A stretch of DNA of 64,000 nucleotides from Pristiophorus japonicus (lineage: Eukaryota), in NCBI RefSeq assembly GCF_044704955.1, contig NC_091997.1, positions 28,272,001-28,336,000 of the forward strand. The letters run 5' to 3'. A program made the position numbers and the translations under genes. Of the stretch, positions 16,642 through 64,000 are shown in pieces. Numbering within the stretch: position 1 is the first letter of the stretch; each line of letters begins with the position of its first letter. Under the pieces are notes generated by a model. The model saw only the letters and a list, made by a program, of their open reading frames with translations, searched no databases and had not been told where the DNA came from.

Positions 16642-19600
16642 GTAATATCTCCTGATTTGTGGTTTGTTGGGATGCCTGCTTGACTGGTAGTTAAACCTTT
16701 TTATATGGAATTTTCTGTTGAATTTCGCTAATCTATCACTTGTTTCTTTTTCATTGACCTTGACAAGCTCCACTTGTGTGTGTGTGTGTGTTGTGTATCA
16801 TGTTCCCACTCCAGGTTCTCCTGTTTAGTTCTCCAATGATTCTGCCTTCAATTTCTTATCTTCATTCGAACAGGGATCAAGGCCTTCTGCGGTAGATGTG
16901 CGGACTCCTTAATCTAGAAAGTTGCTGGAAATGCTTTCCCAACTTGTCCATTCTAGGTTTACAGGACTGGGGTTGTAGTTTGTTCGCTAACTCACTTTGT
17001 GCCAAACAACTGGACAACCCTAACCCCTTCTGACATTGGCAGTGAATTGCAATCGTTCTCTCTCGCCCCCGAGAACCAGAGTCTAAACTCTCCCTCTTTG
17101 AGTTAAGCTAGCCGGGGCGATTATTTCACGGTGTAACGTGTTACTTGCCTTGCCTCTTCCCATTTGTTTTTTGGACTTTGTCTAACTGTTTTGTCCTCCT
17201 TCCCCAAGGTTATTTTTTTTTAATAGAGCTGTGTTTTTTTTCCCCCCGCTAGGTCTGTCACTGTGTTCCATTGTCCTGGCCCTGGTCTTGGTTTCCACGC
17301 AGTGCCCCAGGGATCTGGAAGCATTCCCTTTGCTGCCTCTGTCTGAACTTTTCGCCAAGGCCGTGCACCGCGCACAGCACCTACACCTGGTTGCAGCAGA
17401 AACCTGCAAGGATTTCGTACGTAGCCAAGCCTGTGGAACGCAAGTTATTAGGAAACAAAATTAAGCTTTGAGCACTTGATTTGTGATAGAACCCAGCAAT
17501 GACATGCGTCTAATGTTTGTGTATCTCTGTGTGTGTGTGTTCTTTTTTTTAAAAAAAACTCCAACAGGAACGAAAATATGTCCCCGAAGAGCAGCGCCAT
17601 TCCCACAAGAGTTCACCTTCTGCTTTCTGCCAGTCTGAAACCATCCCAGCACCGACTGGCAAGGAGGATGCCCAGCAACGATCGGTAATTACAATAAAAA
17701 CACACAACAATTTTTTTCCAAGCCTAAATTCAGTTTTACTTTTAACACTACACATTGGTTTCTTTCCTCGTGGCTTCTGTCACGAATACACAGATCTTAG
17801 GAAGGATTTGAAGGCCTTCGAGAGGGTGCATAAAAGATTTGCAATAATGATTCCAGGGATGAGGGACTTCAGTTACACAGATAAACTGGAGAAGCAGGGG
17901 TTGTTGTCCTTAGGGGACAGTCAGTTACACAGAGAGACTGGAGAAGCTAGGGCTATTCTCCTTAGAGCAGAGAGGAGATTTGATAGAGGTATTCAAAATC
18001 ATGAGGGGTCTGGCCAGAGTAGATAAGCGAGAAACTGTTCCCATTGGCGGAAGGGTCGAAAACCAGAGGACACAGATTTAAGGTGATTGGCAGAACCATA
18101 GACCACACGAGGATAAACTTTTGAGTGGTTAGGATCTGGAATGTACTGCCTGAGAGGATGGTGGAGGCAGACTCAATCACTGCTTTCAAAAGGGAATTGG
18201 GTAAGTACCTGAAGGAAAAACAATTGCCGGGCTACGGGGATGGGACGTGGGAGTGGGACACGCTGAAGTGCTCTTGCAGAGAGCCTGCACGGGCTCGACG
18301 GGCCGAATTGCCTCCTTGTGCTGTAACCGTTCTGTGATTCTATGACCGATTGTAAATGTTCCCGATATAAAACATGTCACCTAACTAAAATATCTCTGAC
18401 CAAAGCGGTGTCCCTTCTGGCTAGATTAGCTTTGTTAGGATCTTGCTTTGTCTCACATTAACTCCTGGCCCAGTAACAAAAGTTAGTAAGTCTGACCTCA
18501 GCTATAGTTATGACTCAGCAGAAACAGGGGACTGAGTCCACTGAAACCCACAAATTGTGACTCCATAAATGCTCACAGTTAAAGCCATTATTTAACCACA
18601 CACACACAGCCAAAGATCCAGGTGATTATAGCGTAGTCAGGAATGAATATTTGCAGAATGCCTTCGTTCAGTCCGTAAGCGTGACCTCAAGCTTCCAGTC
18701 GCCTTTAATTCTCCGCTCCACTCCCACTCTGCCCTCTCTCAGTCCTCGCCTCTTACACTGTCCCAATGAAGCTCGAGGAACAGCACCTCATCTTTTGTTT
18801 AGGCACTTTACAGCCTTCTGGACTCAACATCGAGTTCCACAATTTCAGACCGTAACCCCTGCCCCTATTTTCTCAGATGGCTGCTGTTGATGATTCTGCC
18901 ATCTCCATTTACACCCTATCTAGACTTACCTATTGTTTCTTTACTTGTCCCATTACCATCTCCTTTTGCCTTGCACCATCATCCCTTTTGTCTTTCAATC
19001 TCTCCCGGCTTCGCCCGATCCCTTTGTTCTTTCCTCGGCCCTCCCCCTGCCCCAGCACTCGCTTAGAATCTGTTACATCTCTTAACTTTTTCCAGTTCTG
19101 ACGAAAGGTCATGGACCTGAAACGCTGCATGTTCAAATTACATTTCAAAAGTGAAAACAGACACCCGCATTGTAAGTCATGAGAACAAGTGATATTCCTG
19201 TCGTTCTCTCCTGTCACAGGATAAGGAGCTGCTCCTATACTCGCTGCTTCTCATTCAGTCCTGGCTCAATCCCATTCAGAACAGTAGGGCTTTCAGGACC
19301 TCGGACAGAGTCTATGACAAACTGCGGGACCTGGAAGAAGGCATCTATGCTCTGATGAAGGTAGGCGCGCACAATACAAGTAGCTCCACTGTGGTGATAC
19401 CGTGCGTTAAAATTTTTGCAAAACTTTGCAATGTTATTGCGAAATGTAGACGCGTGTTGTACAGACCTTGTTAAAAGCGTTCAGTTTTCTTCTGTTCGTT
19501 TGATGCAATTTTGACAGTAACAGTTTTAGAACTTCGAAAGGGCACAATTTTTGCGTGTAATTCATTTGGTGAAAGAGACATTTTATATCGATAGTGGGGG

Positions 19601-33500: not shown

Positions 33501-36500
33501 GTGAGTCCCGGGGAGAGGAAAAGAGAAGGAATTGGGGAGGGAACAAGTGGGGAGGGGGAGAGAGAGAGAGAGAACAGGCACTGTTGGAGGGAGGGAGTGA
33601 GAGAGAACGGACACTGCTGGAGGGGGGAGAGAGAGAGAAACCATTGCTGGGGTGGAAGATTGAGGGAGGGAACAGACGCTGCTGGGGGAGAGAGAGAGAG
33701 AGAGAGAGAACAGGCACTGTTAGAGAGAGAGAGAGAGAAACCATTGCTGGGGTGGAGGATTGAGGGAGGGAACAGACGCTGCTGGAGGGGGTGGTGGGGT
33801 GAAGGGATTGGAGAGTGAACAGGCACTGATTGGGGGGTGGGGAGGAGGAGAGAGGGAGAATTGTCCCTGAATTACCAATGTTCTTTTCTGTGTCCATAGG
33901 ACTGCATTTTCAAAGTATTTTCTGAATTTGGACTCCTTTACTTTGTGCGGCTGTGCAGGAATGCTGCCGTCGCCGAACCAGGTTATTACGCCGTTGTCAA
34001 ATTCTATTCAGCGGTGGATGCTAGCAGCGCCCTGAATGGTACAAATAAGCAGTGTTTGTTTCAAGAGGTTCCTTTGAAGGTGAGCATAAATTGAAAATTA
34101 CCTGGATTTTATAGGAATCAAATCCTCGTTCACTTTGAGTACCACAGGTCTCATTCAACAGGGTTTCCATTGTCCATATCCTCCAGAATAAAGCATTGTT
34201 CCAATAGTGTTTTGTGACTCCTACAGACTTCCATTAAGCCCGATTCCCTTACTTTGTAGCCTTTATTTCACTTAGTTTTTTCCTTTTTTAGTTTAATACC
34301 GTTCTGCATTATCTACTTGCAACCCAGTTTTCAATGGCAAGTCTGAAATGCACCTGGAAAAAGAAAAAAGGAAAAACCTGCACTTGTATAGTGCCTTTCA
34401 CGACCACTGGATGTCCCAAATGCTTTGCAGTCAATGAAATACTTTTGAAGTGTATATTGACCAGATAATCTGTTTTACTGATGTTGGTTGAGAGATAAAT
34501 ATTGGCCAGGACACCAGGGATAACTCCTTGTTCCTTTTCGAAATAGTGCCATGAGATCTTTTACGTCCACCTTAGAGAGCAGAGGGGGGCCTCGATTTAA
34601 TGTCTCATCCGAAAGACAGCATCTCAGACAGTGCAGCACTCCCTCAGCACTGCACTGGAGTGTCAGCCTAGATGTTTGTGCTCAAGTGTCTGGAGTGGGA
34701 CTTGAACCTACAACCTTCTGACTCAGAGGCAAGTGTGCTACCCACTGAGCCACAGCTGACATGAATTAAAGCAAGACATTTTCCTCAATTCATATCAAAT
34801 CTCAGGACCATAAATACATGGCAATTCAATCGTGCAGTAATGTGTGTAATCAATTGTAAAATTCCAGTTTGTCCTGAATGTTTTTACTAGTTTTATTATT
34901 TCTGTGGAATCAAATCTATTGGTCCAGAATTTGCGGTGGGTAATGACAGCAACCTGTCAGCATGTGCGCCATCATTACCCCTCTGAATCTGACCGTAACT
35001 TCAGGATTTAGTGCGTGTGCAGCTAAATGGGGAAATCCTGGCGTTGTCAGTTATTCCCTTACAGCTGGCAGTCAGTGGAACTGACACAAACTTGAGCTTT
35101 TCCTCGCTAATATCGCCGGTAAATACCGCATTAAATGTTGTCTCGTTGGAATAGGTGTAACTGGGGCACTGGAGAGGGTACAGAGGAGATTTAATAGGAT
35201 GTTGCCTGGACTGGATAATTTTAGCTATGAGGAAAATTGGATAGGCTGGGATTGTTTTCTTTGGAACAGAGGAGAGGCTCAGGGGAGATTTAATTGAGAT
35301 GTATAAATTGAGGGGCCTAGATAGAGTGGATAGGAAGGACCTATTTCCCTTAGCAGAGAAATCAATACCAGGGGGTATAGATTTAAAGTAATTGGTAGGA
35401 GATTTAGAGGGGATTTGAGAAGAATTTTTTTCACCGAGGGTGGTGGGGGTCTGGAACTCGGGTTGAAAGGGTAGTAGAGGCAGAAACCCTCATAACATTT
35501 AAAAAGTACTTGGATGTGCACTTGAAGTGTTGTAACCTCCATGGCTACAGACAAAGAGCTGGAAAGTGGGATTGGGCTGGATAACACTTTGTCGGCCGGC
35601 ATGGACACGACAGGCCGAATCGACTCCTTCTGTGCTATAAATTTCTATGATTCTATGAACAGCTTATTAACTGCTAAACAACCATTCTGGCCCTGAAAAA
35701 CTAATTTTATATTTGTGGAATGTCAAACTTCTCTGATTTAAAAAAAAAAAACCTTTTTGTTAAAGTTTGTTCATGATATTTCAGCTTCCACCTTGTCCCC
35801 ATGTGTATGTCCCAATCTTTATTTCGAACTGAAACATTTTTTTTAAACTGCAGATAATCCATGCTTTTATTTTCTGGTTTGCTTGCTTGAGAATTCTTCA
35901 ATGTGATTGCTTAGATAGCTTGATGACATCACTGCTGTTCTACGCTAGGAATCCCCTATTGACAGCGCTACAGTCAATTTCACGTCGAGGAAGCTTAGGG
36001 TTTCGCCATAGAAATTGCGAGATCTCTGTAGGCAGCTTTGTTCAAGATCAGTGGCGATCGCCGTCATTTCACCGCTGACCACAAATTATGGGCCAGTGTG
36101 TTGCAGTGCTGCACACTCTGACTAACTAGCGGTTAATGGAATCATCATCTTAGGCAGTCCCTCGGAATCGAGGAAGACTTGCTTCCACTCTTAAAATGAA
36201 TCCTTAGGTGGCTGAACAGTCCAATATGAGAATCACAGTCCCTGTCACAGGTGGGACAGATAGTCGTTGAGGGAAGGAGTGGGTGGGACAGGTTTGCTGT
36301 ACACTCTTTCCGCTGCCTGCACTTGATTTCTGCATGCTCTCGGCGATGAGACTCGAGGTGCTCAGCGCCCTTCCGGATGCACTTCCTCCACTTGGGGCCG
36401 TCTTTGGCCAGGGACTCCCAGGTGTCAGTGGGGAAGTTGCACTTTTTCAGGGAGGCTTTGAGGGTGTCCCTGTAACGTTTCCTCTGCCCGCCTTTGACTC

Positions 36501-39500
36501 GTTTGCCATGAAGGAGTTCCGAGTAGAGCGTTTGCTTTGGGAGTCTCGTGTCTGGCATGCGAACGATGTGGTTTGCCCAGCGGAGCTGATCAAATGTGGT
36601 CAGTGTTTCAATGCTGGGGATGTTGGCCTGGTCGAGGACGCTAATGTTGGTGCGTCTGTCCTCCCAGGGAATAAATGGAATACAGGAACAGGAGTAGGCC
36701 ATTCAGCCCCTCGAACCTGTTCCGCCATTCAGTTAGATCATAGCTGATCTGTACTTCAAGTTTATTACCTGTCTTTGCTCCAATATCCCTCAATAACCTT
36801 AACCTTAAAATCTAGTTCATTTTTGAAATTTTCAATTGATCCAGCCTTAATAATTTTTTTTCATTTACACTAACCTTTGGGAAGGAGATCTTTCTGACAT
36901 CGCCCTTGAACGGCCTAACTCTGATTTTAAGGTTATGGCCCCTTGTTCTGGGCTCTCCCACCAGAGGAAATAGTTTCTCTCTCTATACCCTGTCAGCTCC
37001 ATTAGATTACTTCTTAATTTTGTATTCCCTTAAGTATAGAAGCCTAGTCCAATTAATCTATCATAATGTAACCTTTTTAGCTACGGTATCATTCTGCTGA
37101 ATTTACTCTGCACTGCACCAAGGCTAATATATCGTTCCTGATGTTCATTGCTCAGAACTGAATGCAGTTACTCCAGATGGGGTCCAGCTTTTTACAACTG
37201 TAGCATAATTTCTGCTCCTTTTATATTCCACCCCTCTTGAGATGGGGGCCAAAATTCTATTCCCCTTTTAAATGTTTTTGTACGTATCCAATAGCTTTGT
37301 GATTTATGTGATCGTGTCAGCTGTGGCTCAGTTGGTCGCACACTCGCCTCTTGAGTCGGAAGGTTGTGGGTTCAGGTCCTACTCCAGGGACTTGAGCACA
37401 AAAAAAATCTAGGCTGACATCTCCAGTGCAGTGCTGAGGGAGCGCTGCACTGTCGGAGGTGCTGCCTTTCGGACGAGATGTTAAACTGAGGCCCCATCTA
37501 CTCTCTCGGGTGGACGTAAAAGATCCCATGGCGCTATTTCGAAGAGGGAGTTATTCCCAGTGTCCCGGCCAATATTCATCCCTCAATCAACATAACAAAG
37601 AAACAGTTTATCAGGTCATTATCACATTGCTGTTTGTGGGAGTTTGCCGTGTGCAAATTGGCTGTTGCATTTCCCACATTACAACAGTGACTGCACTTCA
37701 AAAAGTACTTCATTGGCTGTAAAGCGCTTTGAGACGTCCGGTGGTCGTGAAAGGCGCTATATAAATGCATGTCTTTTTTTATGTTCATGGAGCCCTAAAG
37801 CTCTCTGTTCCTCCTTAGTTCCTACTTATCATTTTAAAAACCTTTTGCACAAATCTGTCAACTTTTTCCATTATAACTTCCAACGTGAACATTAATTACC
37901 CCACCCCCTTCCTCCAATAGAGGTACTGCAGTACCACCTGTGACAGGAGGGTGTTGTTATGGGGTGAACATTTACATGGTTATTTGGACGTATGAATTTA
38001 AATAATGGAAATATAAAGATAAAGATAGGATGTGTGACTTTAAAGTTGAGACGTAATTGCATTTCACACCCTGGTCCAATTATTCGCCTTCCACTTAAAG
38101 GACTACATGTGGTCTTGATTCCCTAAGTGCAATGCCACGGGTGATTAACTAATGTCTTGTGTATAGCAAGCACTTCCTGTACACATTACTCTTACTTCCT
38201 GTGTCATGATTTTTTAGCAACACTTTATACGTGAACATTTATTGGTAAAACCTGATGTCAACATTTTGTTGTCATGCTTCCATTAATAGCTGTCCTTATA
38301 GGCATACAGACATGGTGCTTTTCTGCCTACCCATCCATGTTTCCCATCTCCTCTACTTCTGGAACACTGATTATAAGTATATTCTGAAGCACCACACTCT
38401 TGGCTCGATCGTCTGGAGCAACTTTAGATGGCTGTACTTTTCCCGGCCAGAATTCCCTGGTCAATCTCGCCTGGAGACCACACTGCTGTATGTGACTGGG
38501 ATTGATTTTATGCACAACATTTGTATGTGACTATCCTCCACTCACTGCATTTTACTGGAGAAATCATGCAGGAGAAGTTGCTGCAGTTTCAGTCCAAAGT
38601 TCTCTGCCGCAGACCCTTTTTAAATACAGGTTGAACCTCTCTGGTTCGGCACCCTCGGGACCTGACCGGTGCCGAAACAGAGAATTTTCCGAACCACGGG
38701 AGGTCAGTGCTGGTAATCGCTGAGGGAGGGAGGAGAGGCGGGGCATGTTGGTGATTGGTCATTTCTCAGGTCTGACGCCCCTTTACTGTGCCATCAAGTT
38801 CCACAATGAGGAAGCAGAGAGAGATGCTGAGCGTTACGGGAGCGCTTACCAGTGAGCTCCAAGCCCAGGCCCAGGAAAGTGGCTGTTCCACCACCGATGC
38901 CGAACCACACATGTTTCTGGATCAGAGAGTCCCGGACCAGAGAGGTTCAACCTGTACACTCTGCAATAGACTGTTTGCTGAGTAGATAGGCATTGTTTGC
39001 TGAAAGTCCAGACCCGCCCCACCTCCAACCCATTGGCTGACACAATGTGTCAATAGACACTCCGACCTTAGACCCTGTTTTCCCTTCTAAATCCCCTGGC
39101 CCGCTTTAGGCACCGTTCTTGCTACAATAACATTTTGTTACTTCTAGAATTTCTTAGCCAAATGTTATGCTACTTAGCAAATTATTTACGTACTTGTAAA
39201 GATGATTTGTAATTTACAGTGTGTTTAATTCTTGTACAGGTTCAAATGTGCACAAAGCAGCGGTCTATGAAAGTATTCCATGAGCACCAACTTTCTCTAA
39301 GCAGCATCAAATGCCAGGAATTGGCGAATTACTACCTTGGTTTCAGCGGATGGTCCAGTCGCATAATTGCAGTAAGAAAAAAATAAGAATTCTGAACAAT
39401 GCCACATAACACGTCAGATTGCATTTAGAACAATTCATAACTCCGTATGTATTTAGAAAAAAATGCACTACATTTCTTTGCACACTGCGGAATTCCAACC

Positions 39501-42500: not shown

Positions 42501-45500
42501 ACGACCACCTACACTCACCAGTTACTACCTCTGGTTCAGCCCAGAGGTACGGAACCTTTGCATAGTGCTCATCCCTCAGCTCCGTTTCTCTGCTACCCCT
42601 CCCCCTTTACAATCAGTCACTGGGATTACTTTCTTTCATGTTTGGAATGTCTGTTTCTGCTCCTGAAAACCGTTATCTCCTCAAGGCTAGATTTCTCTTG
42701 CTGTTCTTCCTGTCTCCATTCTCAATAAACTACAAGCCATCCAGAATGCTGTAGCTTATGTCCTCACCCGGACCCGGACTGTGCTGTATAGCATTATCCG
42801 ATCCTTGCTCGACTCCACTGGCTCTCTGTGACCCACAGCATCAACTTCAAGATCTCAACCTCACTTTAAATCTCCCCGAGGTCTTGCCCCTCCCTATTTT
42901 CACAATCTCCTCCAACCATTATTCCATGTGTTCGTTCTGCTCCTCCGACACCAGGTTATTGCCCTACTCCCTCCACCATCGTCAGCTACTCCTTCGGTCA
43001 CTATGCCTTACCATCTGGAATTTCCTCCTTTGGTGTATTTGCTTTTCTACTGCTCTCCCCGCCGCGCCCCCCCCCCTGCCTTAAACCTCTTAAAGACCCT
43101 CTTCCACCCTGCCCCAACACCCCTCACTTTCTCCTGCTCAGTACCAAATCATTATTCATTAGCGTAAAATACTTGAACAGTTCTCTTATATGTGAGGTGC
43201 TTTTCACAAATGTAAGCTGTCATCTTGCAGTACCTTAGTTTGCTTATAATGTAGCTACTATTCGCATGAATGGTAACCTGTCACTAGATTAGACAGAAAC
43301 TGTGCGCATCAGCTGATGTCGCCGAATGAGGAACTACTTGTACAGCTGCAATCAGTTGAAGTAAACAAGGTCCGAATTAAGGATTTTGAGTAAGAGATAG
43401 AAAAAGGGGCTTTCACCCTTGCATCCCTCATGAGAGCAATCAGCAGCTATTTTTCCTCAACCACCAGCGTAACATGAAGTACAAAAGTTGCAACATAAGA
43501 ATTAGGAGCGGGAATAGGCCATTCGGCCCCTCGAGCCTGCTCCACCATTCAATGAGATCATGGCTGATCATCTATCTCAACTCCACTTGCCTGCACTATT
43601 CCCATATCCCTTGATTCCCTTAATATCTCTCTGTCTTGAATATACTCAAAGACTGAGCCTCCACAGCCCTCTGGGTTAGAGAATGCCAAAGATTCACCAC
43701 CCTCTGAGTGAAGAAGTTTCTCCTCATCTCAGTCCTAAATGGTCGACCCCTTATTCTGAGACTGTGACCCCTGGTTCTAGACTCCCCAGCCAGAGGAAAC
43801 ATCATCTCCGCATCTACCTTGTCAAGCCCTGTAAGAATTTTGTATGTTTCAATGAGATCACCTCTCATTCTTCTAAACTCTAGAGAATATAGGCCGAGTC
43901 TCAATCTCTCCTCATAGGACAATCCCTCCCATCCCAGAAATCAGTCTGGTGAACCTTTGTTGCACTCCCTTTATGGCAAGTATATCTGTCCTTCCTTGGG
44001 TAAGGAGATCAAAACTGTACACAATACTCCAGGTGTGATCTCATCAAGGCCCTATATAATTGCAGTAAGACGTCTTTACTCTTATACTCAAATCCTCTTG
44101 TAATAAAGGACAACATTCCATTTGCATCGATGAAACATCGATGGAAGAAAATGGTCCCAGTTAGTGCCTTCGGGAAAGGCTTTTCAAAATGTTTTTTTAA
44201 TTATTTTTTTTTTTAAAGAGTAAAAATGCTGTAAATAGCATTATAGTAAAAACCCATTATAGTTTTGATATGGAGATTGCTCAAACTGTCCCAAAATGTG
44301 TACAGCATGTGCTTTCACTCCATGTTTGAGGAATACAAGGTAAGCATCTGGTGCTGTATTTATTTATAAAAGTTATCGCGCACCAATTCCTGTCTAAATT
44401 GTTGTATGTGCTGAGGGACATGTTTGTGTTCTAGTTTTCAATTCACTGTCTTCATTCACTGTTTTTAATATACAGCTCCAGAATATTTTTGATTCAGATG
44501 GATGTGAAGAAAATCCACGGGAAATGATTCAGCCAGAGAAAAAGAACATAAAATACCTTTGCATTATGGAAGTTAAATTCATAAATTGCGGCATGTGTAG
44601 CAGAGGTATTGGGGTTTCTGAGGAATTTGACCAAGATGCAACAGGTAAGAAGTAAACTGGAGCTTTGAATGAGAAATATTTGTTATCTTGTTCCTTATAA
44701 TCCTCTAAATGCTTCAGATTAATTGCTTTTAATGTAGGCAAATGCTGCAGCCAAGATATTACAAACTGCAATTAATCTGTTTTTTGATGGTGTTGGTTGA
44801 GGGAGGAATATTGGTCAGTACAGCAAGAGAACTTCCTGCTCCATCAACAACTTCAGCAATGCAGCACTGCCTCAGTGCCCTACAGGAGTGTCTGCCTTAA
44901 ATTCAGACTCCGGACTAAAGTCTGAACTCGTAATATCCTGACTTGGAGCCAAGAATATAAGGAATAGGAGCTGGAGTAGGCCATACTGCCCGTCGAGCCT
45001 GCTCCGCCATTCAATAAGATCATGGCAGCTCCACTTTCCTGCTCGATCTCCATATTTCTTGATTCCCGGAGACTCCAAAAATTGATCGCTCTCAGCCTTA
45101 AATATACTCAGCGACTCCGGATCCACAGCCCTCTGGGGCAGAGAATTCCACAGATTCACAAGTGAAGAAATTCCTCCTCATTTCAGTTTTAAATGGCAGA
45201 CCCCTTATCCTGAGATGATGCCCCATAGTTCGAGACTCTCCAGCCAGGGGAAATCGGCTTGCCAGCAAAGTTGAAGCCCATGGAATAAAAGGGACAGTGG
45301 CAGCATGGATACGAAGTTGGCCAAGTGACAGGAAACAGATCGTTGTGACCGGTTGTTTTTCGGGCTGGAGGAAGGTTTACTGAGGTGTTCCCCATGGGTA
45401 CTAGGACCACTGCTTTTCTTGATGTATATTAATGACTTGGGTGTACAGGGTAGAATTTCAAAATTTGCAGATGACACAAAACTTAGAAGTATAGTGAACG

Positions 45501-48500: not shown

Positions 48501-51217
48501 TGTCCAGAAAAATCCATATCCAGAGCAGGCCAAGTCTCAATGGTTCTGGATAAGGGAGGTTCAACCTGCACGTGAAAAGGAAAAATTTGCAGAGCTATGG
48601 GGAAAGAGCAGGGCAGTGGGTCTAATTGGATAGCTCTTTCCAGAGCAGTTATAGACATGATGGGCCGAATGGCCTCCAGCACCATGCTTGGAGTGTTACA
48701 ATTAGCCTTGGTGCTCCCAGGTTTTTGGGGAGACGGTGGAGTGGGAGGGTGATGATATCAAAAGGGTTGTAGTCCTGACCATTAGATAGTGGTGCCGTTT
48801 TTCGGATGAGGCTATCGCCGGAGGCTCCACCTGTCTATTCTATTGGGTGTAAAAGATCGCATAGTACTATTTGAAGAGTGGAGTTCTTCCTCAGCTGACA
48901 CCATGTAAACCAATTTTAAAAAGTTACTTGATTCATTTGATGTCTGAGATTTCACTGTATGCAAATAGTTGCTGTTTTCCTCAATAAGTGACTACACTTC
49001 AAAAGTAATTAATCAGCTGTGAAATGCTCTGAGAATTCTTGAGGATATGAAAGGTGTTATTTAAATGCAAATTCTTCTTTCGAATGTGTCTGCAGCAAAA
49101 TATTACTCTTGACTGTTCGGTTGATCAGAAGTATTTTATCAATGAAAATAACGTATTCTGTTGTAGATCCACTGAATTTTGTCTTGAAACTCAGAAGGGC
49201 TCAAAAGGCTGCAACACAGAACGCATTATCGGATGCATTCCAGAAAATCCTCCTTGTTGTCCTGGGTAAAGTTGTAATTTGCACATTTTTAGCTTTTTGG
49301 AAGTAGCCCAAATATAGAACAGATTTGATTCAAAATGTCAAGGTGGCCGACAGATTGGGTCCCCTCGGAACAGGAGAAATGTTGAATGGTGAAAATTCGA
49401 GCAACTCTGCGGAAAGGATGACTATGAAACAGCTATTCTCTAAGGGCAAAAGTCGGACATAGCTGCTCGAGCAGCTTTCGATAAATTATCAGCATTAGTC
49501 CTGAATAAGTGACTTGAAAAATAATTAATTGGCTGTGAAACGCTCTTAAAGCATTTGGATGGATATCCGGTCACTGGGTGCATTTTGAGTGCAGAAATGT
49601 AACCCTACGGCTTTTTATTCCCCACCCCCACCGGCTCTTTTTCTCCACCTGACCCTTTGTTGGAGTCCTTAAAATAGTGATGGATTACTTGATCTAGATA
49701 GGTGGAGGACTAGGGCATATCCAGTACAAGTTATGAAAGCATGGTGTTACATTAGATACTAGGAAGTACTTTTTGCAGTGTGTCTTCAATCTCTCGTAAG
49801 TCACCACCATGTGTGGTTAGTGCAGATTCGATGCAAGCATTTAAAAGGGAGATAGAAAAATTCCTATAAGTGGAAAGCATCTCGAGCTATTTGAAGGTTT
49901 GTGGGAATTTGGGGGCTAATATCAGTTACCGTGGTCTCCTAGAGCAAGGTTAGTTGCCTTTGGGGGTTGGAGAGAAATTTCCTATAGCTTCTTTTTCCTA
50001 AATTGTGTCAGCTATGGCTCCGTGGGTAGCACTCTCACCTCTGAGTCAGAAGGTTGTGGGTTCAAGTCCCACTCCAGGGACTTGAACACTAAAATCTAAG
50101 CTGACCCTACAGTGCAATACTGGGGCAGTGCTGCATTGTCTGAGGTGCTGTCTTGCAGATGAGACATTAAACCAAGACCGTGTCTGCTCTCTCAGGTAAA
50201 AGATCCCATAGCACTATTTCGGAGAGAAGGGCAGTTCTCCCAACATTTATCCACATCACTTAAAAACAGATTATCTGGTCATTATCACATTGTTGTTTGT
50301 GGGAGCTTGCTGTGCGCAATTGGCTGCTGCATTTCCTACATTACAACAGTGACTACACTCCAAAAGTACTTCATTGGTAGTAAAGCACTTTGGGACGTCC
50401 TGAGGTCATTCATGAAAGGGGCTAAATAAATGCATGTCTTTCTTTAAATTGGCTTGAGTTTTTTTCCTTTTTGCCACTTGTAAGAGATTGCATGATTTTG
50501 GTGGGGAGGAATGGGGGTGAAAGTGCAACCTTCACACACCCTGTCTGTATGGGATAGGCTTGATGGACTAGCTGGTCTTTACCTGGCCTTTATTTGCTTG
50601 CATTCATCTTGGAAAGTTTTTGCTCTTTATATATCCATATCAGACATGCTGCTTTTTATTGACAATTTAAAAGTTCTATGAATCCTATGTTTGAGATGCT
50701 GTTATTTTTTCTGCAGCTGTAGGGGTGAGGACTGATTTCCCCCCCCCCCCCCCCCCCCCCCCGCCTCCATCTCTGTTTCTTGTAGGGAATGGGAAGGTGT
50801 CTGTGCAATGGAGCTTGGAACAGGATGAAACTGATTGTTTCACAGAGGAGGAACTTCAAACACAACTGCAGGTACAATCACTGGGATCAATATGGGGAAC
50901 ACCTCTATGGGAATTCAAAATGTGTATAGTGTAATAAAGTATCTCTCTGTCATATGATGCAAAGTCACTTTTGCTTTATGATTATTGAGTCTGTACTCAT
51001 GCTCTGGTAGAACCATTACAATTCAATTCCTGTGTGTAATTTTCTCTCTTTACATCTGATTCTTGTGCTTAGCAGTAACCTTGGATAAAACTATTTTGGA
51101 TTTGTTTTTCTTCAGGTAAATGACATTTCATGGAGTCAGTTTGAACATGAGGGGCAGGAAGAAATTCTGTCTGATCTCAGTTTAAATACAGAGACTATAG
51201 AAGGAATTGAAACATGA
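33378..51217 (+). CDS. RDM1: RAD52 motif-containing protein 1 (RRM plus RAD52-like motif), 7 coding exons, 891 nt, 296 aa
   Basis: join(33378-33500,33900-34079,39240-39371,44476-44644,49167-49265,50786-50871,51116-51217), GT-AG, phases consistent. Motifs KTLFV, FSEFGLLY, NAAVAEPGYYAVVKFYS, KCQELANYYLGF, ALSDAFQKILLVVL match RDM1 as recalled. Start codon less certain. Confidence 0.93.
33510..33860 (+). repeat. GA/G-rich compound tandem repeat filling RDM1 intron 1
   Basis: (GA)n runs and a recurring unit ccattgctggggtgga(a/g)gattgagggagggaacagacgctgctgg at 33641 and 33741. Confidence 0.85.
33900..34079 (+). CDS. RDM1: RDM1 exon 2 (RRM)
   Basis: ccatag|GAC...AAG|gtgagc; DCIFKVFSEFGLLYFVRLCRNAAVAEPGYYAVVKFYSAVDASSALNGTNKQCLFQEVPLK. 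Confidence 0.93.
34375..34760 (-). mobile_element. DeuSINE/SacSINE1-like SINE
   Basis: Reverse complement of the SINE family with an internal deletion. Confidence 0.85.
34921..36094. mobile_element. TIR element (Harbinger-type MITE) containing a CR1 3' fragment (35165-35658, +)
   Basis: Ends ggtccagaatttgcgg and ccacaaattatgggcc are imperfect inverted repeats (13 of 16). Confidence 0.6.
36141..36670 (-). mobile_element. RTE LINE 3' end
   Basis: QLRWANHIVRMPDTRLPKQ...CPTCDRDCDSHIGLFSHLRIH; homolog of 831-1955. Confidence 0.9.
36675..37300 (-). mobile_element. Degenerate CR1 3' part
   Basis: ggaacaggagtaggccattcagcccctcga tail region and CR1-like downstream sequence. Confidence 0.65.
37315..37780 (+). 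mobile_element. Full-length DeuSINE/SacSINE1-like SINE
   Basis: Complete head, Deu-like domain and tail. Confidence 0.88.
38627..38954. mobile_element. Tc1-mariner/pogo (Tigger-like) MITE
   Basis: TA|caggttgaacctctctggttcgg ... ccggaccagagaggttcaacctg|TA; 22 of 23 TIR match; TA TSD. Confidence 0.85.
39240..39371 (+). CDS. RDM1: RDM1 exon 3 (RAD52-like motif)
   Basis: gtacag|GTT...GCA|gtaaga; VQMCTKQRSMKVFHEHQLSLSSIKCQELANYYLGFSGWSSRIIA. Confidence 0.93.
40610..41885 (-). mobile_element. L2 LINE RT region
   Basis: SYRPISNLPFLSKVL, VPQGSILG, FHMYADDTQLY, LQLNIGKTE. Confidence 0.9.
43493..44126 (-). mobile_element. CR1 3' part
   Basis: LGLYSLEFRRMRGDLIETYK; aacataagaa tail. Confidence 0.88.
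44476..44644 (+). CDS. RDM1: RDM1 exon 4
   Basis: atacag|CTC...ACAG|gtaaga; LQNIFDSDGCEENPREMIQPEKKNIKYLCIMEVKFINCGMCSRGIGVSEEFDQDAT. Confidence 0.88.
44953..46510. mobile_element. Minus-strand CR1 3' end split by a plus-strand CR1 (about 45257-46387)
   Basis: Outer breaks at ccagccaggggaaa and resumes at aacaacctctcagc; inner carries the 274-aa ORF 45545-46369. Confidence 0.85.
46658..47518. mobile_element. PIF/Harbinger-type non-autonomous element
   Basis: Perfect 12-bp TIR GGGCCCAATTTT / AAAATTGGGCCC with 3-bp TSD ATA on both sides. Confidence 0.75.
47840..48680 (+). mobile_element. CR1 3' part with a nested pogo-type MITE (48225-48568)
   Basis: MITE termini ta|caggttgatcctcccttatccaga and tctggataagggaggttcaacctg|ca; CR1 continues on both sides. 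Confidence 0.8.
49167..49265 (+). CDS. RDM1: RDM1 exon 5
   Basis: ttgtag|AT...CTGG|gtaaag; DPLNFVLKLRRAQKAATQNALSDAFQKILLVVL. Confidence 0.93.
50005..50445 (+). mobile_element. DeuSINE/SacSINE1-like SINE
   Basis: Head, Deu-like domain and tail present. Confidence 0.85.
50786..50871 (+). CDS. RDM1: RDM1 exon 6
   Basis: ttgtag|GG...CAG|gtacaa; GNGKVSVQWSLEQDETDCFTEEELQTQLQ. Confidence 0.9.
51116..51217 (+). CDS. RDM1: RDM1 exon 7 (coding part)
   Basis: cttcag|GTA...TGA; VNDISWSQFEHEGQEEILSDLSLNTETIEGIET*. Confidence 0.88.
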   Translation, partial: VNDISWSQFEHEGQEEILSDLSLNTETIEGIET

Positions 51218-56316: not shown

Positions 56317-56524
56317 CACTTAGGACACACAGAAGAACCTACCAAACCTATTAGTATAGGGAAGCTTCCCCCCTGTCCCCATGAGTTGAGGATGGAGAGC
56401 AAGGTGGTCATGCCCTCCCAACCACCCACCCACACACACAATCCCTCGTGCTCTGCCTGGGCCAGTGCCATGGAGAAAGAAAGAGAGAGATTGTATGCTC
56501 CTTGGGTTTTTCTTTGGTGACCTC

Positions 56525-56660
56525 TTCGGCCAGCGCGCGTGGGCGCGGCGCACGTGTGCAGGGGCCGGCGACGTCACACAATGGGAAGGAACGCGCTGCC
56601 TTGGCAACCAATGGACCGGGCAGCAACCACTCGGGCCAGCGCCTGACAGCGGCTTGGGGA
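56525..56660 (+). promoter_or_regulatory. CpG-rich promoter of the LRRC37-like gene
   Basis: E-box CACGTG (56551), CRE-like CGACGTCA (56569), RFX X-box GCTGCCTTGGCAAC (56595-56608), CCAAT (56608), high CpG density. Confidence 0.65.
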
Positions 56661-57166
56661 AGGGAAACATGGCATCAATGGTATCGACGGGGCCAGCGGC
56701 CTTGAGATCCTCCTGCCCGGCCTCGGCGTGAGCGACCAACACGGGTGTCGAGCAGGGACCCCGAGCATCCCAGACACGGACGGGGGAAGGCCTGGGCTCG
56801 CTCACCGAGACTCAGGCCCTACGGCCTCCTAGGCTTCGAGGCCTCCCTCTTGTGGCCCTGCAGCTTTGCATCCCCCTCATTTTTTGGGGGGGCCCCCCCA
56901 AACTTTCGAGCCTCAGTCAACAGGGTGGCCTTTGGCTGGAGATAGAGGAACCAGCACCAGCAGAGGAACCACCACCAGCAGCAGGCCTCTTGAGATTTAA
57001 GGGATTTATTCACTGGGCGACAGACCCAGCAGGTTATTTTTTTGAGATCAGATTCCTGTTTGTTCAGTTCTTCCTTCTACATTCTGGACATCAGATCTCT
57101 GGGCATCGGGCACCGAGCGGCCCACTAGCCCAGGCGTGGGGTTCAGCGATTTAGCGTGTAAAAATA

Positions 57167-57399
57167 ATGGCAATAGCCCATGTTGTGGTGGCACTGCTGC
57201 TTTTTGGGCATTTTTATGTTGGTCAAATGCAGAGCATCCCCACCACCGCCACCACAATGAACAAAGAATCTCAAAATGCCTCCTGCCCCATTTTGTGCAC
57301 GTGTACCTCTTGGTTGCTATCCTGCATCGGGGCTGGGAAATGGCATCAGCTGGATAATGTGCCATTCATCAGAGGGTCGTCGTACATATTCAACACTCT
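57167..57399 (+). CDS. LRRC37: First coding exon of a leucine-rich-repeat protein, LRRC37-like (signal peptide plus LRR N-terminal cap); gene continues beyond this exon
   Basis: MAIAHVVVALLLFGHFYVGQMQS signal peptide; CPILCTCTSWLLSCIGAGKWHQLDNVPFIRGSSYIFNTL cap; strong phase-2 donor ACTCT|gtaagt. Resembles the recalled human LRRC37A segment [40 protein letters not shown]. Confidence 0.65.
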
Positions 57400-58114
57400 G
57401 TAAGTATCAGAACAAGAGAACAGTATGCAGTGACAGACTTCATGAGAATTATTGTTTGCGCAATTGGTGTGTCCTAGGAATGAGTATTTCTTGGATTTCA
57501 AAAAGCTGCCTGTTAATTTAGTGGCAATAGGCAGCTGATCACGAATCTGAGCTAAAAACAAAACTGGTTTGACCACCAAAGCAAAATTTGTTAATGGCCT
57601 AGATCTAAATGAAAGTACAGAAACAAATGCTGGCACGGGCTCGATGGGCCAAATGGCCGACTTCCATGCTGTAACCATTCTATGATTCTATGAATTGCCA
57701 TTGGAAAAATTGCTGTATTGTGGTCAAAATGATGGGGTTCAAAACTCAAATCTAACAGTAGTATGACTTGCAGCTGGCTGCTTGATGAGGTGCCTCACAA
57801 CACTGAAATATCACACTTAAGGCTAAGTTTCAGCATGCCAATTAGTTTGGAAAAAATTATTTGAGCTAAAGAAAAAAAAAAATGGTGGCTTGAAAGGAAC
57901 CTCTGCACATTTATCCTCCCACCTCAAATCATTGTTTCTATCCTTTTTGCTCACAATAATAACATGAGAATATGACATTTGGCTCATCCAGCCACACTCT
58001 CCTATCACAGTATCTTGAGTTTTTGCCTTTAATACCCTACCCAGAAGTCCATTCCAATCATTGATCACTCTTTATATGAGCAGTACCTGACATCAGTCCT
58101 AGGCTTCCAACAGG

Positions 58115-58705
58115 TTCAGCTGTGACTCAGTAGCAGCACTCTAGCCTCAAAGTCAGATGAATGTGGGTTAAAGTCCCACTCCGTGACTTAAGCACATAAT
58201 CTAGGCTGACACTTCAATGCAGTACTGAAGGAGTGTGGCACTGTCGGAGGTGCCATCTTTCAGATGTGACATTAAACTGAGGCCCTGTCTTCTCAGGTGG
58301 ACATAAAAGATCCCATTGCACTATTTCGAAGAAAAGCAGGGGAGTACTGAGTGCAGTTCTGAGGGACTGCTGCGCTGTTGGAGGTGCCGCCTTTCAGATG
58401 AGACATTAAACTTAGGCCCGTTCTACTCTCTTTGGTGAATGCAGAAGGTCTAATAGAACTATTTGAAGAAGAGCAGCAGAGTTCTCCAGGTGTCTTGGCC
58501 AATATTTGTCCCTCAACCAACATCACTAAACCAGATGATTTTGTAATTTATCTTATTGCTGTTTGTGAGACTTTGCTGAGTGCAAATTGGCTGCCACGTT
58601 TTCCTACCTTATAACCGTGACTATACTTCAGAAATATTTAATTGGCAGTAAAGCGCTTTAGGATTCTTGAGTTTGTGAAAGGTGCTAGATATATGCAAAT
58701 TCCTC
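58115..58705 (+). mobile_element. DeuSINE/SacSINE1-like SINE with internal duplication (dimer-like)
   Basis: Segment gcag..ctgagggag...ttaaactgaggccc occurs twice (about 58220 and 58352). Confidence 0.8.
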
Positions 58706-58849
58706 TCCTACATAATTTGTTTCTTTTACTCATTTTACATTGTATTATTTTATTAATACATTTAGGTTTTTTTTAGTCTACACTTACTATCTCTCGATGT
58801 ATATGTACTGTACATGATTAGTAGCATGCCCTCAACTGAGATTTTCTTG

Positions 58850-59340
58850 AGTACTGCCCCTAGTTGCTTTGTTTAAGCTCTTTCCTAATTCCTTGAAGTT
58901 GGCCTTTTTAAAGTTGTGCACAAGAGCATTGGTTTGCATATTGATTTATCCCTGATCAATGCAAATACAAGTCCTTTCCTTTGATCATGTCAAATTTAAT
59001 CATGTTATGATTGCTATTATCTAGGGATGCTACGACTTCAGTTTCTAAATATGCATTTTGTCGTTGGCAATTAAATGTAAGTTAGTTCTCATGACATCCC
59101 TAATGCATTGTGTCAAAAAGCAGTGATGAATTACATTAATGAACTCTGATTTAAGCCTGCTCGGGCATTCTTGGTTAATATTAGGTGGGTTGGAGTTTTT
59201 TATTAGTAAGAACTTTCTGTTTGCAAATACTTCCTTTATTTCTTCATGCCGTCATGTCATGTTTTAATTTTGAACTGATGGTCTACAGCAAACCCATAGA
59301 GTTGATTTGTTCCCTTCACATGATTTTCAACTGGTTAATT
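58850..59340 (-). mobile_element. Old CR1-like endonuclease-region remnant
   Basis: Minus strand reads ASLDNSNHNMIKFD, resembling the CR1 PLGKSDHNMVEF motif seen at about 30810. Confidence 0.5.
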
Positions 59341-59349
59341 TGAACTTTT

Positions 59350-59608
59350 CCATTTAAAACAGAAATGAGGAGGAATTTCTTCTCTGAGGGTCGTGATACT
59401 TTGGAATTCTCTACTCCAAACAGCTGTGGAGGCTGGGTCATTGAATATATTTAAGGTGGAGATTGACTGATTTTTCAGAGATGAGGGAGTCAAGGGATAC
59501 GAGGGAGAGGGCAGGGAAGTGGAGTTGAGCCCAAGATCAGATCAGCCATGATCTTATTGAATGGCAGAGCAGGCTCGAGGGGCCTATTTCCTATTTCTTA
59601 TGTTCTTA
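59350..59608 (+). mobile_element. CR1 3' end
   Basis: Matches 13600-13873; tail ttcttatgttctta. Confidence 0.85.
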
Positions 59609-60145
59609 CACTTACAGACCCACAATAAATTTACCACAAATCCTCTCAAAATATCAATGTAAAATAAATTTACCCACCTCCAGAGCCGACACTTTCGGGG
59701 CCCGCCGATCCATCAGCACCTGAACTCAAATATAATTTAAAAACATTTCTGTTGATTTATACATTATTTAGATGGATTTTCCCCCCTAAATTAGCTCTCT
59801 GTAAAAGGAAGGGATTTGTTGATCGTCCTGGTCCCACCAAGTAATCAGTTCAAAAACATCTTGCGGTCAGACGTAGAGATAAAAAAAATCTGACTGGCCA
59901 CCCAAATGACTTTTCAATCCTGCATTTTGCACCTCTGTCCTCCCAGTGGGTGATGAAGATGCACCCACACTGGTGTGGATATTTACAGGAATATTCAAAT
60001 CCAGTGACACCAGGCTAACCTGAATACTCCAGCAGTGTCAGGAGCAGAGGTCAGTGGTGTAGTGAGATTCTCATTCTACAGTATTTAATGTTTGATTAAT
60101 GACTGACAGTCGTTCTAGCCAGTCGGCACACACACATACTGAAAA

Positions 60146-60229
60146 CACTTGACCTCCCCTTATCTGGAAATATCCCTCATTCGGAACAGGCCAGGTCCTG
60201 AGGGTTCTGGATAAGGAAGCTTCAACCTG
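60146..60229. mobile_element. Short pogo-type MITE derivative
   Basis: Degenerate versions of the TIRs at 48225-48568. Confidence 0.6.
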
Positions 60230-61269
60230 TACTTAAAAAAACAACTACTTTTCAAGTAAAATAAACTTTTCACTGCATTTTTCCGAAACCCTTGTCATGT
60301 TTGGTTAGAGAAACAGCATTATCCATTTTAACTTAATCACAAATCATTGTTTGGCGTCTTAGACAGCCGAATGTTTGTCTTGGGCTAAAAGGTCATGGAC
60401 TTGAAACTTGATGGGATTCACCCAGTCTTTCCTCCTACTGAGAGATAAAAGTAGTATTGTATCTTAGTAAGTGGGGAGAACGCATGGTATTTGTATTCAG
60501 ATAACCTTGGCTGTTTAAAAGTGGGGATTAGCACTGTAGCCAATTTGTGTCTAATGAATGCCGTGTTATGAGGGTTATGCTTTTTTGTTTTTCTCTCATA
60601 TATGTATATATACACAACAACTACACTTCAATTTAAAAAAAAACAGTTAGCAATAGCAACACAACATCAGCCCATTCGGTAGCCTCGAGGGAGAGAGAAA
60701 TAGCAAAAAGATAGGCATATCAATATAACTAAAAACAGGTTGGCTCGATTCCATGTCAAATAAGGAAGGTCCAAAATGTATTTGATGTAAACAGATCTTA
60801 AAGGTTTGCGCACATCATGAACTTTCAAAATAACTTTTAGGTCATTTTTGTCTTCCCCTTTTAAAGATTCCTTGTGCCACTTACTAATCCTCTCGCTAGA
60901 AGCAAAAAAATACAGTTCATTAGAGACCTTCTTGCTTTTCTCCCTTGTCAATTTTTAAATTACTGTATTTCAATTACTCCTTTCTTCAAATGCTCCACAA
61001 AAAGCAGGATTTCCCAGCCAGAGGAAGGGGCACATTACTTGTTACTAGGGCCGGACCGCTGGCAGTCTGGACCAATGTCTAGAAGATTTGTAAAAGCACT
61101 ATGATAGTCTAAACAAATGATTTTCTCTTCCCACACCATGAAGATATTTTTAATGAGCATAATTGTGATTGTTCAAGTGTCATTTTTGAAATGTCACAAA
61201 ATTCTGAAGTTTCATTGATTGCAAATCTCCATATTGGTGAATTTCTATGTTGAGGATTTTGTTAGCGTC

Positions 61270-61640
61270 TAAAAAGAACTTGCAGTAATGTAGCACCTTT
61301 CACGATGTCCCAAAACACTTTACAGCTAATGAAGTACTATTTTTGAAGTGTGGTCACAGTTGTAATGTAGCAGTCAATTTGCACACAGACAGCAGTGTGA
61401 TAATGATCTGTTTTTAATGATGTTGGATGAGGAGTAAATATTGGGCAGGTCACTGGGGAGAACTTACCCTGCTCTTCTTGAAAACAGCATCATGGGATCT
61501 TTTATGTCCCACTGAGAAGGCCCCTCCAACAGGGCAGCACTCCCTCAGTACTGGGCTGGAGTAGCAGCCTGGATTATGTGTGCAAGTCTCTGGAGTGGGT
61601 TTTGAACTGGCAAACCTTCTGACACTGAGTCACAGCTGGC
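61270..61640 (-). mobile_element. DeuSINE/SacSINE1-like SINE (diverged)
   Basis: Reverse complement of the SINE family. Confidence 0.75.
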
Positions 61641-61959
61641 ATCTATCTACAAGGTTGTTTGTAAAGTTTGTGCCTACCTTCACACCAGTTAACTGTTTCC
61701 CTGATGGATGCTGCAATCAGTTACTTGTACAAAATAAATTGCTTTATAATGAGCTCTGTACATTAGGAACATCGGACATTTTAGAAAAAACAAAAGTCTA
61801 CTTGGTCTAACAAGGATTTTTTTTGGTTGATCTCAATCCCACCTTCCTGCATTCTCACCATATCATTCAATCCCATTATATTCCAGAAACATATTTATGC
61901 AACTTGACACTGTGGCAACTTATTTCATATATCTAATATATGTTGTATGGAATAGTTGT

Positions 61960-63283
61960 GTCTGAATTGCCTCTTAGGAGACAGAGAGTAGGGATAATGG
62001 GTATGCACTCAAATTGGCAGGATGTAACTAGTGGTGTACCCCAGGGATCGGTACAAATTTTCACTATATTTATAAATGACTTTGATGAAGGAATAGAGAG
62101 CCGTATCTCCAAGTTTGCTGACGACACTAAGTTAGGGCCACAGTAAGTTGTGTAGATGGGAACAGAAAGTTGCAAAGGGACATGGATAGATTAAGTGAGT
62201 GGGCAAAACTGTACCTGATGGAGTTCAATGTGGGATAGTGTGAGGTCTTCCACTTTAGACATAAGAAAGATAGATCAGAGTATTTTCAAAATGGTGAGAA
62301 GCTAGGTGCTGTGGATGAGCAGAGATATTTAGGGGTTCATGTACAGAAATCACTAAAAGCTAGTGGACAGATACAAAAATAATTAAAAAGGCTAATGGAA
62401 TGTTGGCCTTTATCTTAAGAGGACTGGAATACAAAGGGGCGAAAGCTATGTTACAGTTGTGCAGAGCTCTGGTTAGATCCCACCTGGAGCACTGCATTCA
62501 GTTCTGGGTACCGCACCCCAGGAAGGATATAGTGACCTTCATCCTCCGTGCAGCAGAGCAGGTCTCCAGTCGTCTTGGTTAGCCTTTGCCACTGGATAAA
62601 GGCCGAGCTCTGTCAAGCCCGTGTAGTGGCTGGTGTGCAACGGTCACCACATGTTAAAAAAATTCACTCACAGGCATCTTCCACCCCCTCAATTGAAGTT
62701 CAGGACTGGAACATCGAGTCCTTCGTCGAAACACTTGTGAACTCATGGAAGCAAGCCATCCTCGTTCGAGGGACCGCCTATGATTGATTGATTGATTGAG
62801 TGACCTTGGAGGGGATGCAGCACAGATTCACCAGAATGATAAAAAGGTTAAATTATGAGGACAGGTTTCATAGATTAGGCTTGCATTGCTTTGAATATAG
62901 AATATTAAGGGATGATTTAATTGACGTGTTTAAGATTATCAAATGATTTGATAGGGTAGATAGAAACTATTTCTTTTGGTGGGACAGTCCAGATCAAGAG
63001 GGCATAACCTTAAAATTAGCTAGGACATTCAGGGGCAATGTCAAAAAGCATTTTTTCCACATAAAGGGTAGTGGAAATCTGGAACTATCTTCCCCCAAAA
63101 AGCTGTTGAGGCTAGCTCAATTAATAATTTTAAACCTGAGATTGATAGATTATTGCTAGCCAAGGGTATTAAGGGATATGGAGCCAAGGTAGGTAAATGG
63201 AGCTAGGATACAGATCAGGCATGAACTCGTTGAATGCCAGAACAGGCTCGAGGGGCTGAATGGCCTCCTGTTCCTATGTTCTT
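61960..63283 (+). mobile_element. CR1 3' part with a nested RTE-related short element (62540-62798)
   Basis: VTSGVPQGS and KFADDTK motifs; insert flanked by 9-bp TSD AGTGACCTT with a (GATT)n tail. Confidence 0.85.
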
Positions 63284-63334
63284 GCCACTGAGCCAATTGT
63301 CCATTCAACACTTTCCTGTATCATCATTTAGAAA

Positions 63335-64000
63335 GGCACGGATTAATCAAGGACAGTCTGCACGGATTTATTAAGTGAAGGTCGTGCCTGACTAACTTGA
63401 TTGAATTTTTTGAGGAGGTAACAAGGAGGGTTGATAGCGCATTTGATATAATCTATATGGATTTTAACAAGGCTGTTCTCAGGTTCCATATGGCAGACTG
63501 ATCAGAAAAGCCCATGGGATCCAAACGAAAGTGGCATGTTGGATCCAAATTTGGCTCATTGGCAGGAAGCAAATATAAAGGTCAACAGGTGTTTTAGTGG
63601 CTGGAAGGCTGTTTCCAGTGAGGTTCTGCAGGGTTCAGTACTCGGTCCCTTGTTTTTTGTGGTATGTATCAATGATTTAGACTTCAATGCAGGGGGCATG
63701 ATTAAGAAGTTTGCAGATGATACAAAAATTGGCCATGTGGTTGATAGTGAGGAAGAAAGCTGTAGACCTCAGAAAGATATCAATGGACTGGTCTGGTGGG
63801 CAGAAAAGTGACAAATGGAATTCAATCCATGAAGTGTGAGGTAATGCATTTGGGGAGGGCTAACAAGACAAGGGAATATGCAATAAATGTTAGGATACTG
63901 AGAAGTGTAGAGGAACAAAGGGATGTTGGAGTGCAAGTCCACAGATCCCTGAAGGTAGTAGGACGGGTAGATAAGATGGTTAAGAAGACATATGAGATAC
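63335..64000 (+). mobile_element. CR1 RT region running off the window end
   Basis: SCLTNLIEFFEEV, QGSVLGPL, KFADDTK. Confidence 0.88.

Follow-up and report, generated by a model that had tools for sequence, protein, structure and literature searches.

We found that the 64,000-nt window analysed here (contig NC_091997.1 of the shark Pristiophorus japonicus, positions 28,272,001 to 28,336,000) carries the first coding exon of an LRRC37 ortholog, an identity of the gene that we regard as virtually certain. Taken as a whole, the data are probably best explained by a single, intact LRRC37 gene that encodes a membrane scaffold of the sperm acrosome and whose short N-terminal head would be the ancestral one. 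The features around the exon are as follows, in window coordinates.

56401..56800, strand not given: CpG-rich stretch (GC 0.61-0.67, CpG observed/expected ~0.75), likely the promoter region
56684..57166, + strand: 5′ leader of at least 483 nt, sharing an exon with the ATG (transcript contig from one public run and ATG scan)
57167..57399, + strand: LRRC37 coding exon 1, encoding the signal peptide, a short linker and the LRR N-terminal cap (aa 1-77 plus 2 nt), identical to aa 1-78 of the database protein
57400..57405, + strand: phase-2 splice donor GTAAGT of intron 1 (8,327 nt)
57406..64000, + strand: the part of intron 1 that lies in the window, repeat-rich

The 77-codon frame begins with the ATG at 57167-57169 (A at -3, G at +4), and the exon, 233 nt in length, ends in phase 2 at 57399. 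The signal peptide (hydrophobic stretch at aa 3-17), the cysteine cap that starts at Cys40 (CPxxCxC...LSC...LxxVP...IFNTL) and the donor are present at 57167-57405 as described in the initial annotation, which had been made from the letters of the window. Despite the absence of a Pfam family match for exon 1 alone, the frame is, judged by sequence comparison, not a chance one, since it is 100% identical to the N-terminus of the P. japonicus UniRef protein 'LRRC37A-like' and 62-90% identical to eight further records, of which seven are from named sharks or rays and one is unnamed (the relatives include skates, catsharks and an electric ray). It has a single match in the genome.

We then examined whether exon 1 is transcribed. 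Exon 1 occurs in five public runs, none recorded as RNA. In one run, a 2,485-nt contig matches window positions 56684-57399 with 0 differences and departs from the genome exactly at the donor, in agreement with the splice donor described in the initial annotation. Exons 7, 8 and 9 follow in this contig, joined at GT-AG boundaries, and exons 2-6, judged by total length and not aligned directly, would account for the stretch from exon 1 to exon 7, whose 369 nt are exactly their combined length. This single spliced run was judged to be RNA-derived from its GT-AG joints alone, its library kind and tissue not being on record. Contigs from three runs of another organism run past the donor into the intron, as expected of genomic DNA. 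Since the spliced contig extends from 56684, a search for an upstream ATG in the 483-nt leader gave none and an in-frame stop lies at 57152, upstream of the exon-1 ATG, the short LRRC37 N-terminus is real and the observed transcript has no missing upstream coding exon.

When the protein was mapped onto the window plus the 200 kb that follow, 14 coding exons emerged, spread across 100 kb, and those after exon 1 are placed as follows.

Contig 28,337,727-28,429,296, beyond the window: exons 2-14, of 72, 72, 72, 81, 72, 75, 116, 1688, 105, 74, 61, 158 and 28 nt

All 13 introns are GT-AG and the first seven are in phase 2, and the spliced coding sequence of 2,907 nt translates into exactly the 968-aa database protein (isoform X1). 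The LRRC37AB_C domain (PF14914) scores 96.3 bits in this protein against a curated cut-off of 27; its genome matches are two, both inside this gene, and LRRC37 is single-copy in this shark. The parts that had been predicted to lie downstream (72-nt phase-2 LRR exons, LRRC37AB_C and a TM helix) were all found beyond the window. The label of a compact gene does not fit 14 exons over 100 kb, which are short only at the N-terminus, nor does that of a minimal ectodomain fit a 968-aa protein (947 aa in human LRRC37B) with ~810 aa outside the membrane, a stalk of 433 aa included.

An AlphaFold model (76-row alignment, mean pLDDT 54, pTM 0.48), in which the LRR region is confidently modelled (pLDDT about 90-98), shows an LRR solenoid with seven repeat strands, a helical cysteine-rich cap, a disordered stalk, a three-helix domain and a TM helix, and the protein is predicted to be a type I membrane protein. 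The linker of about 16 residues described in the initial annotation fits if the signal peptide is cleaved after Ser23, a site estimated from hydropathy (peaks at aa 1-19 and 843-861) and from the N-terminal helix 2-21 of the model. In the predicted anatomy, the signal peptide would be followed by an LRR horseshoe at aa 40-265, in which the cap leads into six repeats, each encoded by a separate phase-2 exon, with a last repeat and the helical cysteine-rich cap closing it; then would come the disordered stalk (433 aa, with RVKR at 439-442 as a furin-type site), a domain of three helices and two cysteines at about 695-760, a single TM helix at about 840-865 and a tail of 103 aa in which the motif PLW-x-x-D-x-Y-x-P-L ... 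SS-acidic is conserved. Compared to the gene of a skate or catshark, the window gene is 92-93% identical in the LRR core, 95-100% in the helical domain, TM and tail motif, and 55-59% in the stalk. The tail motif, of ~40 aa (aa 915-955 of the 968-aa protein, P0011; exon 13, contig 28,426,038-28,426,195), is kept from sharks to mammals and is covered by none of the Pfam matches on the 968-aa protein. Among records with a tail match, PLW is present in 75/77, D-x-Y-x-P-hydrophobic in 60/77 and SS-acidic in 63/77, counts that lean high because the rows include isoforms and were chosen by a profile built on the motif. Of six other elasmobranch records, five have RVKR at the corresponding position, and the bat checked alongside lacks it; a furin motif occurs in 29 of 55 long-stalk homologs, which are not independent of one another, against 10.7 by shuffle, and it is patchy in amniotes, with none in the sampled records of platypus, opossum and sauropsids. 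A Foldseek search with the model gave generic LRR ectodomain folds only, among them the neuronal LRR receptors NgR, AMIGO1 and LINGO1, and the atlas structure rows all fell below TM 0.5. Atlas feature matches to equatorin/Afaf (0.77-0.79) were below the bar and were not used.

Exon 9 contains an exitron, an internal 333-nt GT-AG intron (contig 28,375,233-28,375,565) that takes out the whole three-helix domain, the helical half of LRRC37AB_C. In the spliced run, the skipped joint, whose shorter side has 28 letters, was covered at a depth of 74.8 and the retained form at 99.9. Isoform pairs of two skates, two catsharks and a sevengill shark differ by the same 111-aa deletion, with identical ends, and isoforms of a stingray and a caecilian drop the same domain with different ends. 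Other database isoforms omit exon 3, or exons 2 and 3, so that the number of LRRs changes in frame, as in human splice variants.

We next looked at family membership. A profile search of 1.84 billion representatives gave 1,228 matches at E 1e-30, and 20 LRRC37 proteins were named among the best 150. In an IQ-TREE of the LRR core, with 23 LRRC37 rows and six outgroup rows (long branches, without SLITRK and LRRC70), LRRC37 lies on one side of a 99/97 branch; the shark protein groups with LRRC37 there, and not with another LRR family, the outcome against which the initial annotation had set its reading. The tree follows species order, from elasmobranchs through coelacanth, amphibians, sauropsids, platypus and marsupials to placentals, with several inner forks moderately supported. 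Scores of the shark core are 124-182 bits with named sarcopterygian LRRC37, whereas the other LRR proteins compared reach no more than 82 bits. Pfam found no second LRR block, TIR or 7-TM in the 968-aa protein (the marks of SLITRK, LRRTM, TLR and LGR, along with far higher repeat numbers), and the model has one short LRR block. No ray-finned or jawless fish was present among 86 LRRC37-like tree rows, drawn from the best 150 of the 1,228 matches at E 1e-30. Two word-based homolog searches were filled by insect and other multi-LRR proteins, with few tetrapods, and the alignment search missed its own amphibian and coelacanth members and is thus uninformative on range.

The gene is closest in plan to the human LRRC37A type (LRRC37A, A2 and A3; ancestral locus LRRC37A4P) and to mouse Lrrc37a, which like the shark gene have 14 exons, with LRR exons 2-8, a large exon 9 and a TM exon 10. 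Exon 9 is unsplit in the shark (1,688 nt; 1,532 bp in the human A type), the LRR exons of the A type are likewise alternatively skipped, and its neighbours are RDM1, PLEKHM1 and a gene of the ARHGAP27 type. Unlike the shark gene, with 233 coding nt in exon 1, human LRRC37A has an exon 1 of 2,612 bp, and the type is amplified in primates whereas the shark has a single copy; the 333-nt exitron in exon 9 is the shark's. The sequence comparison to the A type used mouse lemur, jaguar, bats and others, and not the human protein. Human LRRC37B shares with the shark protein the LRR core, the helical C-terminal domain, the TM and a similar length, whereas its exon 9 is split into 141 + 293 bp, its terminal exons are different and nothing in the shark protein corresponds to its SCN1B-binding LB segment. 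Records from coelacanth (XP_064421732.1), caecilian (XP_033774743.1), tailed frog (XP_075441304.1), axolotl (XP_069490158.1) and platypus (XP_028930523.1) resemble the shark in having the cap within about 10-45 aa of the signal peptide, a long stalk, the helical domain, the TM and the tail motif; they differ from it in the LRR core (35-41% identical) and in stalks that do not align. In summary, the LRRC37AB_C domain, the exon plan and the tree agree with the LRRC37 orthology that had been proposed from exon 1.

By analogy with the mouse and sturgeon data, we consider an acrosomal scaffold role of the shark protein fairly likely. According to a preprint (bioRxiv 10.64898/2026.09.11.751093), mouse LRRC37A is acrosomal and binds ATP1A1 and ATP1A4, its knockout is infertile with swollen acrosomes, and LRRC37A is found at the sperm head in mouse and human. 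The available accounts of its localisation in the mouse disagree, placing it in the outer acrosomal region or in the inner membrane-theca complex. Expression is testis-only in mouse and testis-dominant in macaque, and in HeLa cells the human protein LRRC37A undergoes cleavage and release. The sperm of sturgeon carry an acrosome, and the sturgeon semen proteome has proteins named LRRC37A-like (PMC11291920, whose supplement gives names and not sequences). LRRC37 would likely position other membrane proteins in the sperm acrosome, with the LRR head binding partners on the luminal or outer side and the tail sorting the protein from the Golgi to the acrosome. A YxxPhi motif with an acidic cluster, as in the tail, is generally read as a sorting signal. 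A furin-type cleavage may shed the head, and the exitron would switch the helical domain on or off. The partners in the shark may differ from those in tetrapods, because the LRR cores of shark and tetrapods are only 34-41% identical. The named amphibian and lobe-finned matches, including the tailed frog Ascaphus truei, are presumably all from internal fertilisers, a pattern that fits the framing of the preprint, whereas the sturgeon proteome entry does not.

This true LRRC37 ortholog could instead have a mainly non-sperm role in sharks, as a cell-surface LRR receptor or adhesion protein, which we consider rather unlikely. Human LRRC37B is described as neuronal, with an LRR region that binds FGF13A, and the fold of the shark protein resembles NgR, AMIGO1 and LINGO1. 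The elasmobranch conservation is very high, which is unusual for a sperm protein, and the tissue of the spliced run is not on record. However, the fold matches are generic for LRR proteins, and the SCN1B-binding LB segment (LRRC37B aa 133-186) belongs to the long N-terminal part, which is missing from the shark protein. The testis expression in mouse and macaque, the sperm-head localisation in mouse and human and the sturgeon semen proteome also speak against a mainly non-sperm role, and for the acrosomal one.

To place the short head in the family, we compared the position at which the cap starts. Among 15 non-therian records, it begins at aa 23-63 in 14, which come from sharks, rays, the coelacanth, a caecilian, the tailed frog, two salamanders, geckos, a bustard and the platypus, and at aa 106 in the remaining one, a gecko model, compared to aa 185-5113 in 47 of 52 therian-clade records, a count that omits records whose best profile match lacked the cap and in which most therian rows are unnamed and placed by the tree. 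The other five therian-clade records look 5′-partial, beginning without a visible signal peptide. In a tortoise, the cap is at aa 31. The head is long in wombat (cap at aa 481) and opossum (521) and short in platypus (28), for which two other models have different starts and are without the cap. The therian-type exon-1 repeats (PF15779) gave no match in the 968-aa shark protein, which has its cap at Cys40 and no long low-complexity region. Thus, the initial annotation was right that the shark lacks the large N-terminal region, and calling that region mammalian does not hold overall, as the platypus lacks it too. The short head would be the general non-therian state and not a shark-specific one, with long heads confined to marsupials and placentals among the records sampled, and a long repetitive exon 1 is the mark of a derived subgroup, not of the LRRC37 family. 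Since wombat and opossum have the long head and platypus the short one (the latter in one RefSeq model), the long head was likely inserted in the therian ancestor: the short N-terminus would be ancestral, and the Pro/Thr/Ser/Glu/Gln-rich repeat region was likely inserted between the signal and the cap.

The reverse history, in which the long form is ancestral and the short N-terminus reflects a secondary non-therian loss or an artefact of missed upstream exons, appears highly improbable. It could draw on the fact that most non-therian records are automatic gene models, in which long repetitive exons are easily missed, and on the other starts of some elasmobranch models. However, these other starts are RDM1 exons in another frame, and for this shark the spliced contig, with its first ATG after the 483-nt leader and its in-frame stop, largely refutes a missed exon. 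Moreover, many separate losses would be needed, because the signal and the cap adjoin in sharks, rays, coelacanth, four amphibians, geckos, tortoise, bustard and platypus.

We also examined the neighbourhood of the gene, of which the following parts lie in the window.

17553..19360, + strand: growth hormone gene, two exons seen, upstream of RDM1 (frame at 17553 against human growth hormone, E 2.4e-5)
33900-34079, about 39297-39377, 44476-44643, about 49167-49265 and 50786-50872, + strand: exons of RDM1, the upstream neighbour

RDM1 is single-copy and lies directly upstream of LRRC37 on the same strand; it was identified by RRM_1 and by DSRM_RDM1, which passed the cut-off in two exons and fell short of it in one more, while the last exon was placed solely from its position and frame. 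A bamboo-shark LRRC37 model has an N-terminus that matches RDM1 3′ exons (49233-49265 and 50786-50872) in another frame and is joined to LRRC37 exon 2, and a stingray model has, by alignment, an RDM1-exon N-terminus too; such RDM1-to-LRRC37 read-through models, which skip exon 1, are either real or mis-annotated. We take 19220-19360, which has no Pfam match, to be a growth hormone exon by its likeness. Upstream of the growth hormone gene, an Ig-domain exon and a TM-like exon are presumably CD79B, going by gene order; the Ig exon had no CD79B match in the PDB. At about 198,500-202,500 in window-extended coordinates, and at one further site, there are open frames that resemble an LTR retrotransposon (gag/pol-like), and many LINE fragments occur throughout the region.

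Of 32 type I interferon matches, one lies 32 kb past the LRRC37 stop and the other 31 at 41.7-42.4 Mb of the same contig, where several copies (41.72-42.39 Mb) are near-identical in appearance and evenly spaced. PLEKHM1 follows the interferon cluster (113 bits, against 37 for PLEKHM2) together with an ARHGAP12/15-type RhoGAP, which would be ARHGAP27, 14 Mb from LRRC37 on the same contig, and WNT3 is at 45.6 Mb. The human order is ARHGAP27, PLEKHM1, LRRC37A4P, RDM1P1 according to PMC10045734, LRRC37A4 is described as the ancestral mammalian locus, and the dog region likewise joins RDM1, ARHGAP27 and LRRC37 according to PMC4053742. This suggests that an old block RDM1-LRRC37-interferons-PLEKHM1-ARHGAP27 may have been split here, by 13 Mb and within the interferon cluster, through rearrangement or misassembly. 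That the gene belongs to some other LRR family (SLITRK, LRRC70, TLR, LRRTM or LGR) and owes its name to a best-hit artefact, for which one could invoke exon 1 having no Pfam match alone and multi-repeat LRR proteins beating bat LRRC37 in summed phmmer scores, is refuted by the family-specific C-terminal domain, the exon plan, the tree, the tail motif and the synteny, while sequence matches to solved structures reach at most 98 bits and are generic as well as weak, and we give it practically no credence.

The gene is already annotated publicly as LRRC37A-like by automatic annotation. The origin of the family at least in the jawed-vertebrate ancestor, claimed in the initial annotation and borne out by the species order of the LRR-core tree, is right but not new, because the 2026 preprint (bioRxiv 10.64898/2026.09.11.751093) already lists LRRC37A in cartilaginous fishes. 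The passages searched in PMC3530683, PMC3371713 and PMC10754148 treat mammals only, and none of six synteny terms occurs in the shark interferon paper PMC6640115. In the literature searched, we found no functional study of a shark LRRC37 protein and nothing relevant for LRRC37 with Xenopus, zebrafish, testis, interferon or synteny; nor did we find the short-head ancestry, the therian dating, the synteny block, the exitron or the tail motif there (a search of text passages and some supplements, in which the results for shark and for monotremes or marsupials were crowded by unrelated papers).

A wider reading, to which we give slightly less than an even chance, would join these strands: the ancestral LRRC37 would have been a short-headed acrosomal scaffold whose gene lay in a block GH-RDM1-LRRC37-type I interferon cluster-PLEKHM1-ARHGAP27, and the core-duplicon source locus at human 17q21.31 would be what remains of that block; therians would have added the giant exon-1 repeats, later the base of human-specific functions; elasmobranchs would toggle the helical domain by the 333-nt exitron; and the family would track the acrosome (present in sturgeon, which fertilise externally, with loss predicted in teleosts) and not internal fertilisation, as the preprint frames it.

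For a family with ties to both male fertility and human neuron evolution, the shark gene provides an outgroup. It separates the old parts shared from shark to mammal, namely the LRR head, the helical domain, the TM and the tail motif, which are about 450 million years old, from the probable therian add-on, the long exon 1, which is the site of the SCN1B-binding segment of LRRC37B. The shark form would thus lend itself as a minimal construct to rescue the mouse knockout, with the tail motif as a target for mutation.
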